64,000 nt of DNA from an uncultured Bacteroidales bacterium (GTDB lineage: Bacteria > Bacteroidota > Bacteroidia > Bacteroidales > FEN-979). The position numbers and the translations under genes were made by a program. The DNA lies in contig CAWDBP010000008.1 in the NCBI GenBank assembly GCA_963800585.1, forward strand, positions 146,104-210,103. Reading direction: 5' to 3'. Numbering within the stretch: position 1 is the first letter of the stretch; the number at the start of each line of letters is the position of its first letter. The notes beneath the pieces were generated by a model. The model ran no database searches. It saw nothing but the letters and a program-made list of their open reading frames with translations, and was not told the DNA's origin. Of this stretch, positions 38,424-45,621 are shown one piece after another.

Positions 38424-41400
38424 TTATCTGATCACAACCATTTTCTTTGTATCGGTTGTCTTGTCTTTCATGACAAGTGAATATACATATACTCCTGCTG
38501 GCATTAAAGAAGTGTTGCAAGTTATCTTTTGTACGCCATCCTTTAAATCTGTTATCGGAATTTCTTGTTGTAACCGACCCAAGTAATCATATATTTTGAT
38601 TGAAGCGTCTATTACCGAGTAGAGTTTGAAATAGATATCCGTAGTTAAATTGGTAGGATTTGGAACATTCTTAAGAAGCTGTCCACTTTGTAATTTGTTA
38701 TTACTTTTTTTCAACGTATGTTTGGGTAATGGCAATAGTCTGATTAATGAATCCCTTAACTTAACATAGCTTTTCCTGGTTTTAGGAACAAGTTGCGAAA
38801 TCAAACCAGCATATGTTGATTTTTGATTGGTGGAATCCATCAAAAAATATAGATGACCTAAATCAATTGTTGCAAAAATACTGTCTGTTTCACTTTCAGG
38901 ATCTTCAATGCCATTTATATAATAATCCATAGCATCAGCCCAGTTTTGCAATTGAATACTGCAATTATTTGCTAAATACCCTCCAAGATCCTGAAGGGTG
39001 CTGTCTGCCATAATTGAATCATTCGTCAGGTAATACAACTGTAAAGATGCGAAATCATTTCCTGCATAAGGTTCAATTGAATATAATTCTTTCATTGATG
39101 ATTGAGCATAATGCGAAGTAGGGTAGGTCTCCACTAAAAGTTGAAATAAATTCTTTGCATCAGAGTAATCTCCATTATTTACATCATTCATTGCGTTATC
39201 GTACATTGCTTCATCGTCAGGGAGGCCTCCACAACTTCCTGGGAAATTCCAAATAGGAGTATAAATATAATTTCCATAATTCGCATAAAGACGTGAACCT
39301 GGATTAACATTAAGCCCCCAGTAATTGCAATAAACATTTAGTGAAGGTGGTTTACTATAATAATTATCACCATAATATACAAATGTATCTTTAGAATTAC
39401 TATTCATTATAACATTATATTTTAATAGTGTAGGAAAACAATGATCCGTTGCATATATTTCATATCTTGTACAATTATTAATGTTCTGAGTTTCTGAAGG
39501 AGAAGTTGCATTTTGATTTCCCACTGATGTTGTACTGCTCACCCAATTTAATAATTTAATCCCAAATTGCCCCACTTGATTTCCTTCAATATCATTCGCT
39601 GTGAGATTAGCCGTTGAAGCTGAAGTGACAATTCCTGCTGAAGTACAATTGCTAATTTGATTACCTTGCACAAGATGATTCCCAATGTCGTTTCCACAAT
39701 AAAACAAACTTATCCCTTCAAGACCATAGGAAATTATATTATTTATAATGTTGTAATTATGAAAATCTTCTACTGTAATACTATTTATAGGTAACGGGTG
39801 CTGATTAAATGTACAATTTATTATATTTGCTGTAACTGTATCAGATGGATTGTTGTTACTAAGAAACAGGGCAGACTTGTTAAATGCTGAGTTTGTAATT
39901 CTGATCTTAGGATTGATATTAGACCAGTGAAAATCTAATGCAACAGGATTACAATTAGTAAAAGTTGAATGATCAATAGTTAAATTGGAGCAGTAATCAG
40001 CTAAATAACAGTTGTTAAAAGTAGCTTGTTCTAGATTTAGTGGATAAGAATTATCTTCAACGACTAAACCATTAACTTCGAATCCGTTATCCCCATTAAA
40101 TATTACTCCCGGTGAATTAACAGTTAATTGATTATTTGCAACTACATAAATAAATGAATTTGCTCCCAGAGTCAATTGTGCACTTTGATCAATTGTCATT
40201 GGTGCCCAGACATTTAATCTTCCTCCCAATAAGTAACTATACGAGTATGTACTTGAAACATAACCTTTAACCTCTTGAGAACTTGCTGAAGTATTTCCGG
40301 CAATCCCATTGAGACAAAATAATGTATCAACGCTGAAACCACTAATTACCCCCATCTCTGGGGTTTCAAAATCACCATTACTATTTTGTGCTAATTTACT
40401 TTGATTCCAATAACCATCCTGACACCATGTGTCCATAGCTTTGGCATACCTGAATGCTTCAGTAAGCTGAGTAAAACCATCATTGTTTCCAGGGTCGACA
40501 TTTCCAAATCCCGGAGTTCCCGAATCTGGATTGTAATCTAATGGATGTGGAGTCGGATGCCAACCACGACTAGGATCAGTCCATGGAAGGTTATTGAACG
40601 GAAGTTGTCCTACTGGATAGCTCCAATCCCAAGGCCAACGACCCTCATAATGTCCTCTTATTGCAGCAGTCCAATAGAATGTAAATTCATCAATATTTCC
40701 ACACGTGAACCATAATTCTTTATAAGAATTGGTTGAAGGATATGAAGGAGAACCATCACCCGTAGCAGCTTGCACTATTCTGTTTTGACATTTGGCAGTA
40801 GTATCATGTGTTAATGGATAAACAAAACATCCTGAATAATTTTGTTGCATAACAAAAATCATTTGAGCGCAATTAATATTGTGAACTGCCTGTTTTAAAT
40901 AAGTTGTTGTAAATTCATTTGGGGATTGTCCAGTTGAATAACACTGAAAATAAGCATCACAATAACTACAATCCTTGCCACCTGGACCAGTAATATAAAC
41001 AAATAATTGATCTTCTGGAGTAAGTGCTTTCGGACCATATGCAAACTTAGTTAATGTGTCATAAATAGCACTCCAGTAAGCTGGACCTTTAACTTCGTTT
41101 TTATTACAACCATTAGGAGGGTCGCAGTTGGTACCATCCCAATCATTACGGAAAGAAGACCTTCCCGCGGTGTCCGTTCCATTGGAATATAGAGTTATTA
41201 TATTTGCAGTATCATATCCGACTTCCTTCAACGCATTATACACCATGGCAATGTCATAATCACGATTAATATCACACGTGTAATTGCCACCGTCTACTCC
41301 GTTAATTAATACAGCATGTAAGTGAGGATTTGGACTCGCAATCGTAGGAGTCGGACTCGGACCAGAGTTGAAAACATTGGTATTACACACTGGCGGTGGA

Positions 41401-41786
41401 CATTGATAGACGATTAGAATTCCATGGTAATTCGTTTGAATATCAATAGGATAACAACTACTTGAATCAATTGTAAAATCCCCTGTATTCGAGTTAATAA
41501 AGATGTAACGACAAGTATGATTCCAATTTGCTACGGGATTATCATCTGAAAAAAACACCCAATTATAAGGATACGGTGGTGAAATGGTTTGGCCATTTAA
41601 TAAAATTATGTTACTTGTGTCTGGAATAGTGTCGTAAGAAGAATAAACATTTATATACCCAGTGTCACTAGCCAGGATTTGGTTAAGAACGAGATCTATT
41701 GCCTTTTGACGGGTAAATTGTCCTGATGAATAGAATGGCAATTGCAAAATAATTGCAATCAGAATTAAGAATCGTAATTTTATCAT
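38424..41786 (-). CDS. 1120-aa T9SS-secreted protein: C13/legumain-like domain (catalytic residues substituted), parallel beta-helix, TPR-like helices, T9SS CTD
   Basis: Signal peptide; HAVLING...+YNALK..GY...NIITLY, D.LFVYITG; Asn-rich I..N.I..N repeats; NVPNP...IYD..G...GVY..K.VV CTD. Confidence 0.8.
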   Translation of the reverse strand: MIKLRFLILIAIILQLPFYSSGQFTRQKAIDLVLNQILASDTGYINVYSSYDTIPDTSNIILLNGQTISPPYPYNWVFFSDDNPVANWNHTCRYIFINSNTGDFTIDSSSCYPIDIQTNYHGILIVYQCPPPVCNTNVFNSGPSPTPTIASPNPHLHAVLINGVDGGNYTCDINRDYDIAMVYNALKEVGYDTANIITLYSNGTDTAGRSSFRNDWDGTNCDPPNGCNKNEVKGPAYWSAIYDTLTKFAYGPKALTPEDQLFVYITGPGGKDCSYCDAYFQCYSTGQSPNEFTTTYLKQAVHNINCAQMIFVMQQNYSGCFVYPLTHDTTAKCQNRIVQAATGDGSPSYPSTNSYKELWFTCGNIDEFTFYWTAAIRGHYEGRWPWDWSYPVGQLPFNNLPWTDPSRGWHPTPHPLDYNPDSGTPGFGNVDPGNNDGFTQLTEAFRYAKAMDTWCQDGYWNQSKLAQNSNGDFETPEMGVISGFSVDTLFCLNGIAGNTSASSQEVKGYVSSTYSYSYLLGGRLNVWAPMTIDQSAQLTLGANSFIYVVANNQLTVNSPGVIFNGDNGFEVNGLVVEDNSYPLNLEQATFNNCYLADYCSNLTIDHSTFTNCNPVALDFHWSNINPKIRITNSAFNKSALFLSNNNPSDTVTANIINCTFNQHPLPINSITVEDFHNYNIINNIISYGLEGISLFYCGNDIGNHLVQGNQISNCTSAGIVTSASTANLTANDIEGNQVGQFGIKLLNWVSSTTSVGNQNATSPSETQNINNCTRYEIYATDHCFPTLLKYNVIMNSNSKDTFVYYGDNYYSKPPSLNVYCNYWGLNVNPGSRLYANYGNYIYTPIWNFPGSCGGLPDDEAMYDNAMNDVNNGDYSDAKNLFQLLVETYPTSHYAQSSMKELYSIEPYAGNDFASLQLYYLTNDSIMADSTLQDLGGYLANNCSIQLQNWADAMDYYINGIEDPESETDSIFATIDLGHLYFLMDSTNQKSTYAGLISQLVPKTRKSYVKLRDSLIRLLPLPKHTLKKSNNKLQSGQLLKNVPNPTNLTTDIYFKLYSVIDASIKIYDYLGRLQQEIPITDLKDGVQKITCNTSLMPAGVYVYSLVMKDKTTDTKKMVVIR

Positions 41787-42043
41787 GGATTGTTCCTCCT
41801 ATAATTTGATGATTAACGGTTCATGTTATTTGCAGGAATTTCCCGTTTACCTTCAAGTAAACGTGTATTAGCCCGGGCTGGCATGGTTGACAGCTATGGT
41901 TCAAGCCCGTGCTTTTTATGTTTGTTAGTACCTCCGTTCCAATTTTAAGGTATTAAAACAACCAATCTTTCTAAATGGATAAACGAAAAACGCCTACAGA
42001 TGAAAATTACAATATATATAAATTTTTAATAAATATATTTTAT

Positions 42044-43493
42044 CACTATTGTCCGACTAAAACCTGATTCTCATTTTGTTCGTTTGCAACTGTCATAGAA
42101 TCAGGTATATTTTGATTGTTTCTTTCATTTTCAAAAACAGACCCCTCTCATTTCAATGCAAATTTTAGCTGTGTTACCCGGTTCGGAGGGTGATCTTTGA
42201 CCAGATAATTTCGTTTTGTACTGCTAAGCAGTTCAAAAACATCCAGCAAGCTGATCAAATGAATCCTGACCAGGGATGCTACCACTGAGAAAGCCTTTTT
42301 TGTCATAGCAATCTTCTGAATGACCGTCAATAGAAGCTGAGCAATCAATGTACACCAGACTTGTGTATATATTGCGTTGACATTCTCGCCATAGAAGTAA
42401 TGAAGTTGAAAATTCTGCTTCATTTTTTTGAACAAAAGCTCTATACCCCATCGTTTTTTGTAAAGAAAGGCAATCTCTTCTGCTGAAATTTCAAAGTTAT
42501 TGCAGAGAAACTCGTAATGTCTGTTTTTTTCATCCTGGTAACTGACCTTTCTTAATCGTATTGTCTCTGTACGATTCATGATTTTCTTTCCCCGGTCATC
42601 TTCAGGATGATATTCCAGTTCAATAATTTCTTCTTTTATCACTATGGCTTTACCCGGGATCCTCGAGTGCGTCTGCACCGTCTCAATAACAGTATACACT
42701 GCGTTTTTCTTCATCCGGGTAACAAAAAAGATTTTTTTTTCTGTCCACAGTGCAAATTGCATATAGTAGTTGTAGGCACGATCAAATACGACCATGCTGT
42801 GAGAGATCAGATCCAGTTCTTTCAGAAAGTTTTTGTCGTGAACCTTAGCGGCTGTGATTTTGACAAACCGTCCTACCGATTGAACTGCATCGATTAGCAT
42901 ATGAACTTTGAGACCGCCTTTCTTTTTTCCGTCATCCTTTGGGTTACGACCGACTCCTTTGAGAATATCGCTAAACAAACGAATCGTTGTAGAATCAATC
43001 AAAAGCACTTCTTTGAATGTAAGCCCGAACGTTCGGCTGTCCGACAAAAAACTTTTATATCGATCCACCAAACTGAAGTAAACATCCTCGAAAAATTTAT
43101 TCGGTCTGTTTCTCAGTCCATCGCTGGCTGTGCTTTTTGCCGGGGATTTATCCAAACCCAGGTGATTCAGTTTGCCTCCCATAGCTCGTAATCCTTCACA
43201 GATCTCAGTCATCGAGTCACACCGGCTGAAAATCCCAAATAGCATCGTCACAAGATGTGTCTTTGCCCTGAACGCCTTGTAATAGCGGTCAGCATCATGC
43301 TTCTTGACTATGCTTTGTATGTTAACCCGTTCTATCAAATCCAGTATTTGTTTAAAAATCGGCTGTCCGACTAATTTTATTTCTGTAATTTTACCCATGT
43401 TGTAGTTTTTGAGTTCGCAAACTAAAAGTACAACATTGGGGGGAACCCTTCGGGGTGTACCCCCTCTTTTAAAAAGTTAGTCGGTCAGTAGTG
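42044..43493 (-). mobile_element. Complete IS4-family insertion sequence (1450 bp)
   Basis: 17-bp terminal IRs CACTATTGTCCGACTAA / CACTACTGACCGACTAA (2 mismatches); 9-bp direct repeat ATATTTTAT at 42035-42043 and 43494-43502. Confidence 0.93.
42148..43398 (-). CDS. IS4-family DDE transposase (DUF4372-like N-terminus plus DDE domain)
   Basis: IDSTTI, G.KVH, VFDRAY, YREK motif LYKKRWGIELLFK. Confidence 0.96.
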   Translation of the reverse strand: MGKITEIKLVGQPIFKQILDLIERVNIQSIVKKHDADRYYKAFRAKTHLVTMLFGIFSRCDSMTEICEGLRAMGGKLNHLGLDKSPAKSTASDGLRNRPNKFFEDVYFSLVDRYKSFLSDSRTFGLTFKEVLLIDSTTIRLFSDILKGVGRNPKDDGKKKGGLKVHMLIDAVQSVGRFVKITAAKVHDKNFLKELDLISHSMVVFDRAYNYYMQFALWTEKKIFFVTRMKKNAVYTVIETVQTHSRIPGKAIVIKEEIIELEYHPEDDRGKKIMNRTETIRLRKVSYQDEKNRHYEFLCNNFEISAEEIAFLYKKRWGIELLFKKMKQNFQLHYFYGENVNAIYTQVWCTLIAQLLLTVIQKIAMTKKAFSVVASLVRIHLISLLDVFELLSSTKRNYLVKDHPPNRVTQLKFALK

Positions 43494-43524
43494 ATATTTT
43501 ATATTATTAATTTGTTTAGCCATT

Positions 43525-45621
43525 CTATTCTATTACCAATTTTTGAACACTCAATCCCTTTTCGTGCGTTATTTTCACAAAATAAATTCCCGCCGGAAAA
43601 TCTATATCCACTTCAACAGCATCGCCTCTCCCAGTTGAAAACTCAGCACCATAAACCTTTGCACCCGTCAGATTGAAAATCTCAATACTTTTAATATCAC
43701 ACTTCGCACATTGCACTTCACACTTATCTTTCGCCGGGTTAGGACTAATGCTAAACCTTGCGATGTTTGGTTGTTTTTCATTCACTGATGTCCATCCTCC
43801 ATATCCCGTTTTTAATATGTTTGCCATGTTACCTACGGCATAACCCGTAACTGTATCTGTAAAAAATACCGAATATAGGGTATTCTCTGTACCGCTTGAA
43901 TCAGCTGTCCATGTTGAACCTGCATCTGTAGTATAAAAAATATCTCCACGCTCATCGACAATATATCCTTTTGAAGGTGTAATAAAAAATACTGACTTTG
44001 AGGAGCATCCACCATTGTTAAGATTAAAACCTGTCCAGGTTGCACCTCCATCAACTGTTTTTAGATTAACTCCCTCATACCCTACAGCATAACCAGTACT
44101 ATCATTTGTGAAGAAAACTGAAAAGAGTTCCTGTTCTGGTTTGTATGGTAATTTATTCCAGGTTATGCCTCCGTCAGTCGTTTTTACGATAACTCCGTAT
44201 GGAGTAGGAGAATCTATCCCTACCGCGTATCCTGTAAGAGAATCGGGGAAATAAACAGAGGTTAAGTCATAATTAACTAAGGTTGACGTCCATGTTACGC
44301 CTGCATCTGTCGTTTTTAAAATAATTCCACTGCTGGTCCAGGAATAATAATATCCTCCAACAACATAGCCATTATTTGCATTTGTAAAGAATACAGAATT
44401 CAAAGGATAGTTTATTCCAGTTAGCATTTGAGTCCATGTCGTGCCCCCATCGGTCGTTTTACCTATATAATCATCACTTGTCATAAATCCAATGTTAGTA
44501 CTGGTAAAATATAATGAATAAATGTATCTATGACCATCAATATAAGAAGATGACCAATCTGTTCCTCCATTCGTGGTTTTCATAAATAATCCCACCAAAC
44601 CACCTGCATATCCTGTACTTTCATCAGGAAAAAAAACTGTATATAACGCATATCCATTATTTGTTCCATATGATATTTGATTCCAGTTAGAACCTCCATC
44701 TAAAGTTTGAGATATTTCTGCCGCACCAACCATATAACCAGTATTGGCATTTGTGAAATACATAGCGCGACAACCTTGTTCCTGTGCAACACATTGAAAA
44801 TTCCATGTGGCGCCGGCATTTGTTGTTTTAAATAAATTCCCTACATCATCACCAACATAACCTGTATTTTGATCTGTGAAAAAAATAGATGGAAAAAAAT
44901 TTTGATCATATTGTCCTAAACCATTGATATCAAGAGTCCATGTAACACCTGCATTTATGGTTTTATAAATATAATCACCTGCCATATATCCATTATTTGC
45001 GTCAGTAAAAAAAATAGAGCACAAATCACCATGAGTAGTTGTTATTGAATCCCAGGTTGTTCCTCCATTATTTGTTTTTAAAATAATCCCTAACTGACTT
45101 CCAATATATCCGGTATTTTGATCTGTAAAATAAACAGATTCTAAATCATCAGTAATTCCTGAATTCTGGTGTGTCCAGTTGATACCTGCATCCGTTGTCT
45201 TAAGTATTTCACCATTAAACCCAACTGAGTAACCAACATTATTTGTTGGGAAATAAATTGAATTTAACCAAAATGCTGGTCCGGAATATACTTTATTCCA
45301 TGTTGATCCTGCATTAGTTGTTTTTAATATAAGATCACCTGTACTTCCATCTTGTCCTGCAATATAACCAGTATTATTGTCTGTAAAGAATATTGAACGT
45401 AGTACAATAGGATTTCCAGAGTAATAAATTGTCCAGGTCGTTCCTCCATCAGTTGTTTTTATTATAGTTCCAAAATCTCCAGCCGCATAGCCATTATTGG
45501 AATCAGTAAAGAAAACTGAATATAAAATATTACCCTGTGGTAATGGATTTTGCCAGTACCATTGGGAGAAAGCAAAGATGGAGAGAAAGGAAAAACAAAG
45601 TAAGAAAATACTTTTTTTCAT
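43525..45621 (-). CDS. YCF48/Asp-box (BNR) repeat beta-propeller protein with T9SS CTD
   Basis: About 14 repeats of S+FF.D...GY.VG..G.I.KT.D.G.TW; signal peptide; SPNP...GIYFV...KLVIE CTD. Confidence 0.9.
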   Translation of the reverse strand: MKKSIFLLCFSFLSIFAFSQWYWQNPLPQGNILYSVFFTDSNNGYAAGDFGTIIKTTDGGTTWTIYYSGNPIVLRSIFFTDNNTGYIAGQDGSTGDLILKTTNAGSTWNKVYSGPAFWLNSIYFPTNNVGYSVGFNGEILKTTDAGINWTHQNSGITDDLESVYFTDQNTGYIGSQLGIILKTNNGGTTWDSITTTHGDLCSIFFTDANNGYMAGDYIYKTINAGVTWTLDINGLGQYDQNFFPSIFFTDQNTGYVGDDVGNLFKTTNAGATWNFQCVAQEQGCRAMYFTNANTGYMVGAAEISQTLDGGSNWNQISYGTNNGYALYTVFFPDESTGYAGGLVGLFMKTTNGGTDWSSSYIDGHRYIYSLYFTSTNIGFMTSDDYIGKTTDGGTTWTQMLTGINYPLNSVFFTNANNGYVVGGYYYSWTSSGIILKTTDAGVTWTSTLVNYDLTSVYFPDSLTGYAVGIDSPTPYGVIVKTTDGGITWNKLPYKPEQELFSVFFTNDSTGYAVGYEGVNLKTVDGGATWTGFNLNNGGCSSKSVFFITPSKGYIVDERGDIFYTTDAGSTWTADSSGTENTLYSVFFTDTVTGYAVGNMANILKTGYGGWTSVNEKQPNIARFSISPNPAKDKCEVQCAKCDIKSIEIFNLTGAKVYGAEFSTGRGDAVEVDIDFPAGIYFVKITHEKGLSVQKLVIE

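Follow-up and report, generated by a model that had tools for sequence, protein, structure and literature searches.

What use a bacterium may have for an exported peptidase domain in which both catalytic residues have been replaced was the question raised by a gene on a window of 64,000 nucleotides (the whole stretch of DNA analysed here, from contig CAWDBP010000008.1 of an uncultured Bacteroidales bacterium from soil). The gene is the open reading frame (ORF) 38424..41786 on the minus strand, and its protein of 1120 residues is called the target below. A first-pass annotation, made from the DNA letters without database searches, had read it as cargo of the type IX secretion system (T9SS) carrying a domain like the C13 (legumain) peptidases of clan CD, with Pro268 in place of the catalytic His and Asn316 in place of the catalytic Cys, fused to a beta-helix and a stalk resembling tetratricopeptide repeats (TPR). 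The core of that reading, a secreted domain of legumain fold, devoid of its His-Cys dyad, within a beta-helix/TPR cargo protein, withstood the analysis described here; the roles it had suggested, peptide binding or service as a decoy or adhesin, are still hypothetical. We propose that the domain is a real legumain-fold pseudopeptidase, and that it probably serves as a non-catalytic binding or scaffold module.

A legumain fold without the His-Cys dyad

The reading frame was intact as first described, with 1120 codons and a stop and no stop codon in between. The codons for Pro268 (CCA, 40983-40985, minus strand) and Asn316 (AAT, 40839-40841, minus strand) stood where the first-pass annotation had placed them, and the four motifs it had quoted as the C13 pattern (HAVLING, VYNALKEVGYDTANIITLY, DQLFVYITGPGG and MIFVMQQNYSGCF) were all present in the target. 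Its estimate that each replacement needed at least two substitutions was correct for Cys to Asn, which takes two, and wrong for His to Pro, which takes just one non-synonymous change (CAY to CCY). Both codons were covered by contigs from three soil runs of one study, with zero differing letters; as the source sample could be among these runs, they cannot count as independent evidence and argue only against an assembly slip. The C13 gene was single-copy in its own 3.78-Mb assembly, which is 90.7% complete; neither a PF01650 match nor a second copy of the domain was found elsewhere in it, so that no active paralog was found, which does not imply that none exists.

Homology of the domain to C13 peptidases was transitive. 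The target itself matched Pfam Peptidase_C13 (PF01650) over residues 172-329 with an E-value of 0.007 and 16.4 bits, under the cut-off of 22.8 bits, but its relatives match PF01650 and the profile of the family matches legumains in the PDB. Fourteen homologs were found with target residues 140-480, at identities of 31-52%, and among these and the target seven of 15 proteins matched PF01650, the best with an E-value of 1.6e-10. When a family profile of 83 members was compared with the PDB, it matched plant peptide asparaginyl ligases and endopeptidases (E 1.5e-9 to 1e-6), and the alignment laid the family's 'tghGg' on TNHGA and its 'qqcySGgF' on EACNAGSM/ESCESGSM of the plant enzymes. TNHGA and EACNAG/ESCESG are the motifs that contain, respectively, the catalytic His and the catalytic Cys in plant legumains.

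The predicted structure pointed the same way. Target residues 1-500 were modelled with AlphaFold2 from an 83-row alignment, with a predicted local distance difference test (pLDDT) score of 89.6 and a predicted template modelling (pTM) score of 0.91, and the top PDB match to the model in a Foldseek search was human legumain (E 3.6e-8, probability 1.00). In the VIA-align comparison with 4n6o_A, model residues 153-494 were aligned with legumain residues 26-283 with a Z-score of 21.2 and a root-mean-square deviation (rmsd) of 2.8 Å over 221 of 263 residues. Further fold matches were PIGK (8imx_K, Z 20.8, rmsd 3.0 Å, 226 residues), the plant enzymes (Z around 20) and metacaspases (Z 18-19). The C13 assignment, first made from motifs, was thereby borne out by both the fold search and the profile, and residues 153-495 are, by their predicted structure, a bona fide legumain-fold domain (MEROPS C13, clan CD). 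PIGK, the catalytic subunit of the glycosylphosphatidylinositol (GPI) transamidase and also known as GPI8, is a C13 member that works in a multi-protein complex, keeps its His-Cys dyad and is an enzyme of the eukaryotic endoplasmic reticulum membrane; the target shares its fold and lacks homologous partner subunits.

In the alignment of the family with the plant legumains, Pro268 occupied the column of the catalytic His, between the invariant Gly267 and Gly269, and Asn316 occupied that of the catalytic Cys, as had been claimed from the motifs. In the model, Pro268 comes directly after strand 260-266 and Asn316 after strand 308-313, which is the arrangement of clan CD. With the legumains, the asparaginyl endopeptidases and the plant ligases, the domain shares the catalytic-domain fold and the order of motifs after strands beta1, beta3 and beta4. 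It differs from legumain in that it lacks the His, the Cys and the Arg of the S1 pocket, carries insertions (342 against about 260 residues) and sits in a bacterial T9SS cargo; its presumed prodomain is N-terminal and PepSY-like, whereas that of legumain is the C-terminal LSAM domain.

Loss of the dyad and the former active site across the family

A HMMER search, run exhaustively with residues 140-480, returned at least 169 representative clusters (at 50% identity) at E<=1e-3, and 105 at E<=1e-10. Most proteins of the family were about 1000-1130 residues long, with a C13 domain that begins near residue 140, and the named relatives came from uncultured Bacteroidales/Bacteroidota assemblies and one Delongbacteria assembly. 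For a census of the dyad, 159 proteins were aligned to a hidden Markov model of the domain, and the 148 rows with both catalytic columns were counted: 108 had both His and Cys, five had the Cys only and 35 had neither. The dyad was thus partly or wholly lost in 40 of the 148 rows, about a quarter, and the homolog alignment that the first-pass annotation had proposed as a check indicated that loss of His and Cys recurs. Where both residues were gone, the former Cys column held Asn in 23 rows, Ser in seven and Asp, Thr, Pro or Gly in the remaining five.

A maximum-likelihood tree of 117 rows, built with the catalytic columns removed, grouped 10 dyad-less rows, the target among them, in a clade with an SH-aLRT support of 100. 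In the sister group of this clade (support 98), four members had His and Cys, three had the Cys only and one lacked both, and the two groups together look like a stepwise series from active through Cys-only to dead. Judged from this tree, the dyad-less state is inherited in a distinct clade of an unstudied Bacteroidota family. The free tree needed eight to nine changes of dyad state, and the starred branches forced five to six. Since single dyad-less rows (P0022, P0065 and P0099) nest inside starred His-Cys clades, loss has been recurrent. A second large dyad-less clade (the 'VN' clade) held 16 rows, mostly with Val and Asn in the His and Cys columns. The approximately unbiased (AU) test did not reject a tree in which this clade and that of the target were joined (p-AU 0.39, log-likelihood difference 16.8), so that a separate origin of these two, the largest without the dyad, was not established. 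A rumen Bacteroidia locus (L018, 6001-7605), with Tyr and Asn in place of the dyad and an intact frame of 1371 residues, stood beside three His-Cys relatives from the ruminant gut (L019-L021) and appears, by its place among them, to be a further separate dyad-less lineage.

Loss of the dyad with retention of the protein has a precedent in clan CD. In bacterial pseudo-orthocaspases (C14), the His-Cys dyad is reported to be replaced by Tyr and Ser in proteins retained across lineages (PMC6426788). Like these pseudo-orthocaspases, some lineages of the target's family have Tyr at the His site (the YN and YP rows, and the rumen locus); unlike them, the family is C13 rather than C14, has other replacements and consists of multidomain T9SS cargo. 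Clan CD pseudopeptidases as such were already known.

The residues around the former active site had changed with the dyad. Within the target clade, the His column was hypervariable (four Asn, two Pro, two Ile, one Thr and one Phe), and the Cys column held four Asn, four Ser, one Asp and one Thr. Asn174 (41265..41267, minus strand) fell in the column aligned with the S1-pocket Arg in the YRHQAD motif of plant legumains, a column with Arg in 61 of 99 dyad-bearing rows and Asn in 8/8 target-clade rows; the next conserved Trp was replaced by Asp in the same proportion (8/8). In the target, Arg175 sits one position from the S1 Arg column, a placement that is alignment-based. The Ser of the ...SW/SSW motif of plant enzymes has a retained counterpart, by alignment, in Ser354, which presumably corresponds to legumain Ser216, and the spacing of the motifs suggests that Glu367 matches legumain Asp231. 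In legumain, the S1 residues are Arg44, His45, Ser216 and Asp231 (PMC4357240). With His changed to Pro, Cys to Asn and Asn in the S1 Arg column, the domain would no longer work as a cysteine peptidase.

The positions that were kept fell into two sets. Glu357, Glu367, Arg336, His414, Asp421, Asp436 and Glu443 are invariant family-wide and kept in the target clade. Invariants specific to the target clade were Cys171, Asn174, Asp176, Cys282, Cys362, Arg383, Trp388, Cys455 and Cys469. Clade-specific invariants sit in pocket-lining segments, and all of those listed except the last two would mark a remodelling of the former pocket. Cys282 and Cys362 were each present in nine of 10 clade members. Cys171 and Cys362 co-occurred in eight rows, were never seen one alone and were both missing from 59 rows, and a disulfide between them across the old pocket, new in this clade, is likely.

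These same residues are what would argue that the domain is still an enzyme, either through a rewired site made of Cys282 or Cys362 with His414 or through chemistry by the Asn at the former Cys position. The high frequency of both cysteines in the clade, the invariance of His414, Glu357 and Glu367, and the appearance of Asn at the former nucleophile position in several lineages that the free tree places apart from one another fit such a site. However, dyad-bearing members conserve His414, Glu357 and Glu367 just as strictly, which means that these are not compensations, no histidine specific to the target clade was seen in the alignment columns, the former His site is hypervariable, and Cys362 always comes with Cys171, as expected for a disulfide of an exported protein. 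The first-pass annotation had itself allowed for a rewired site formed by nearby cysteines, an idea that was largely unsupported: Cys273 (one of nine in the clade), Cys276 (one of eight) and Cys320 (one of 10) were found in the target protein alone, and only Cys282 was conserved. We regard continued catalysis as very improbable, and a non-catalytic binding or scaffold module as the better account of the remodelled pocket.

Conservation and decay among dyad-less relatives

A domain in use should be maintained, and the conservation of the target clade was consistent with this. Pairwise identity over the C13 domain was 55% in the target clade and 52% in the sister group, the terminal branch of the target was 0.40 against a tree median of 0.58, and three relatives (P0002, P0004 and P0005) were full-length at 1131-1164 residues. 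Other parts of the protein were conserved to different degrees in the clade, with 41% identity in the beta-helix and 61% in the TPR region, the most conserved part. The latter figure, together with the resemblance of the beta-helix to carbohydrate-active beta-helix proteins, would suit an arrangement in which the beta-helix and TPR parts do the work, for example by binding glycans or proteins, and the dead C13 domain is a structural passenger needed for folding or export. We consider such a passenger role improbable, as the C13 domain is more conserved in the clade than the beta-helix and its pocket-lining segments gain invariants rather than drift.

Several observations weigh against a selected role of the domain as a binding or scaffold module. 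Among five distinct genomic loci that lack the dyad, two were intact (the target and the rumen locus) and three were disrupted. One (L009, identical to L002, with Phe and Asn in the two columns) had a TAA at codon 51, and another, from the same genus as the target (L003, Asp and Arg), had a TAA near codon 181. The third was represented by two loci (L013 and L014, Asn and Asn) from assemblies 99.97% identical, which shared a frameshift at about residue 500. In L010 (identical to L004), a sixth relative, the gene was truncated and started at residue 306. None of 11 His-Cys loci was disrupted (L005-L008, L011, L012, L016, L017 and L019-L021, with L008 and L015 taken as one). Dyad-less genes therefore appear to be lost more readily, in a comparison of few loci among relatives that are not independent of one another. 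The distribution was also patchy: the domain was found in four of 36 genomes searched from the same family, and in two of 12 from the same genus at an identity of only 42-56%. The gene was located only in DNA contigs of soil and permafrost metagenomes, and no RNA runs were listed as holding it. An insertion sequence (IS) that lies between the target and the neighbouring propeller gene may have cut a shared transcript, or cut off the target from an upstream promoter. At the level of single residues, the equivalence of Pro268 and Asn316 with the catalytic His and Cys rests on the profile alignment and the strand topology, and the co-occurrence of Cys171 with Cys362 represents a single clade event and so is not independent covariation.

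The shared frameshift of the third locus (L013:1144-4568 and L014:6001-9425) lay where a variable linker joins the C13 domain to the beta-helix and left ORFs of 544 and 589 residues; it could represent a real split, a pseudogene or recoding.

Such disruptions, the patchy distribution, the IS directly upstream of the target and a G+C content of 0.34-0.38 across the 38-46 kb stretch, compared with 0.40-0.45 in its surroundings, are what one would expect if the gene were a protease relic heading for loss, with no selected function after the dyad was lost and an intact frame that is only transient. Nevertheless, in a clade whose members now share only about 55% identity, dozens of positions have stayed invariant and new clade-specific invariants have arisen; branch lengths are not raised, the target is stop-free over its whole length, and the three relatives named above are full-length. 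Each broken relative carried one lesion, which would point to recent and separate inactivation rather than long neutrality. The first-pass annotation had named relaxed selection on a copy whose close homologs keep both residues as evidence against its reading. The loss of His and Cys proved to be shared in the clade, in favour of that reading, and several close relatives proved to be disrupted, which counts partly against it and means that the gene is not everywhere under strong selection. Taken together, single lesions and strong conservation in the clade suggest an accessory gene that has a function but can be dispensed with and is occasionally inactivated. We thus judge a relic to be unlikely and continue to favour a pseudopeptidase that acts as a binding or scaffold module.

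Architecture, neighbouring genes and significance

The coordinates of the target, of its parts and of the neighbouring features are collected in the table.

Table. Features of the target gene and its upstream neighbourhood in the window.
Feature	Position	Strand	Evidence or remark
Whole target gene	38424..41786	(-)	putative signal peptide, possibly PepSY-like N-domain, dyad-less C13, beta-helix, TPR, T9SS C-terminal domain
Residues 1-22, putative signal segment	41721..41786	(-)	hydrophobic, by sequence ends in SSG before Q; modelled helix 2-19
Residues 23-131, alpha+beta N-domain, possibly a PepSY-like prodomain	41394..41720	(-)	model pLDDT 94.4
Residues 153-495, predicted legumain (C13) fold domain without His-Cys dyad	40302..41330	(-)	structure match, Foldseek, family profile
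Residues ~496-800, right-handed beta-helix, approximate boundaries	39387..40301	(-)	family profile match to AlgG C5-epimerase, E 9e-8
Residues ~851-1000, TPR region resembling BamD/YbgF	38787..39236	(-)	YfiO 858-901 E 6e-4, TPR_6, BamD/CpoB chains
Residues 1042-1118, T9SS type A C-terminal sorting domain	38433..38663	(-)	TIGR04183 26.1 bits, cut-off 23
IS flank, target side	41787-42147		intergenic
IS transposase gene	42148..43398	(-)	DDE_Tnp_1 + DUF4372; between target and propeller, genes adjacent in relatives
IS flank, propeller side	43399-43524		intergenic
698-residue T9SS cargo with Ycf48/BNR propeller repeats	43525..45621	(-)	PSII_BNR E 4.8e-48, Por_Secre_tail E 9.5e-10

The T9SS tail read by the first-pass annotation was upheld by the TIGR04183 match over its cut-off; against PF18962 the target scored 26.9 bits, marginally below the 27-bit cut-off. 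The beta-helix and TPR-like parts were likewise recovered through Pfam matches of homologs and the family profile, with Beta_helix matched by three of 15 proteins and NosD by two of 15; the target itself had only a weak Pentapeptide_4 match. For the N-domain, the best fold matches were weak (YpeB C-terminal domain Z 6.4, YpmB 5.7, CD1622 5.3, vibriolysin propeptide 5.3), a Foldseek search gave no match at E<=1e-3, and no Pfam match was found in the target or its homologs; a role as prodomain is possible as a guess from the model. Its W-x-H-x-C motif (residues 88-92, 41511-41525) is family-wide, with W88 and H90 invariant and C92 nearly so, in active and dead members alike. The same holds for an acidic motif, H-P-x-D-Y-x-P-D...N-x-D-G...E (residues 414-464, 40395-40547, minus strand), which looks like a metal site, perhaps for calcium, in an insertion that legumain does not have.

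Dyad-bearing members of the family (P0009, P0014, P0015, L011, L012 and L016) had the same five-part architecture at about 1030-1110 residues, including the same N-domain with W-x-H-x-C, and were 31-44% identical to the target over residues 140-480. Both catalytic residues, and for the most part the S1 Arg, are retained in these members, and the propeller encoded upstream of them is of the FG-GAP type, not Ycf48.

The gene upstream of the target was conserved in its relatives. Orthologs of the Ycf48-like propeller, at 45-51% identity, lay directly upstream of target relatives in L009, L010 and L014, that is, in all three distinct relatives' loci with upstream sequence (3/3). T9SS-tailed FG-GAP propeller genes lay directly upstream of dyad-bearing relatives (L011:4535-5956, L016:3934-6258 and L017:4945-6363, L016 also with BNR), and a secreted propeller beside the C13 cargo seems, from these gene orders, to be a family trait. 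The T9SS machinery was represented in the target's own genome by SprA (2569 bits, over the cut-off), and at least 148 matches to the T9SS C-terminal domain (CTD) passed the cut-off, among 150 matches listed. With CTD genes in such numbers, mere adjacency is weak evidence, and it is the orthology of the neighbour that counts. A predicted complex of propeller residues 20-620 with C13 residues 150-497 scored 0.00 against a mark of 0.32, which is uninformative on binding. Only one full copy of the IS that separates the two genes was present in the assembly, and a search for terminal inverted repeats and a target duplication found none that was convincing.

The T9SS secretome implied by these CTD matches is very large for a 3.78-Mb genome. 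The only GldM/PorM-like match in the genome (G000:C5:45450-47021) was in three pieces and below the cut-off, with a TGA and a TAG within the largest of them; the SprA gene, located elsewhere, was intact.

There has been hardly any study of the legumain-like (C13) proteins of bacteria, and in the full-text literature searched, no paper was found that links C13 or legumain to type IX secretion or to Bacteroidetes, or that describes any bacterial legumain pseudoprotease. The present analysis defines a large T9SS cargo family with one common architecture, and the series from active through Cys-only to dead members could serve as material for research on the conversion of clan CD proteases into non-catalytic binding proteins. 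If our reading is correct, the target would be exported by the T9SS to the cell surface or beyond, where the dead domain, with its remodelled pocket, would be exposed alongside the beta-helix and TPR parts as a ligand- or protein-binding or scaffold module. The conserved propeller gene is flagged as a candidate partner, and a functional link may join the C13 module to the secreted Ycf48-like propeller, whose gene lies directly upstream. A bolder version, which we hold to be speculative and rather doubtful, is that T9SS-bearing Bacteroidota have repeatedly turned secreted proteases of the legumain type into dead surface receptors, with the nucleophile convergently replaced, mostly by Asn, and the pocket rebuilt and locked by a disulfide, to give a trap for substrates or ligands that does not cut and that works in a fixed two-gene unit with the propeller. 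Were this the case, the pair of pseudoenzyme and propeller would represent a new kind of surface recognition device.

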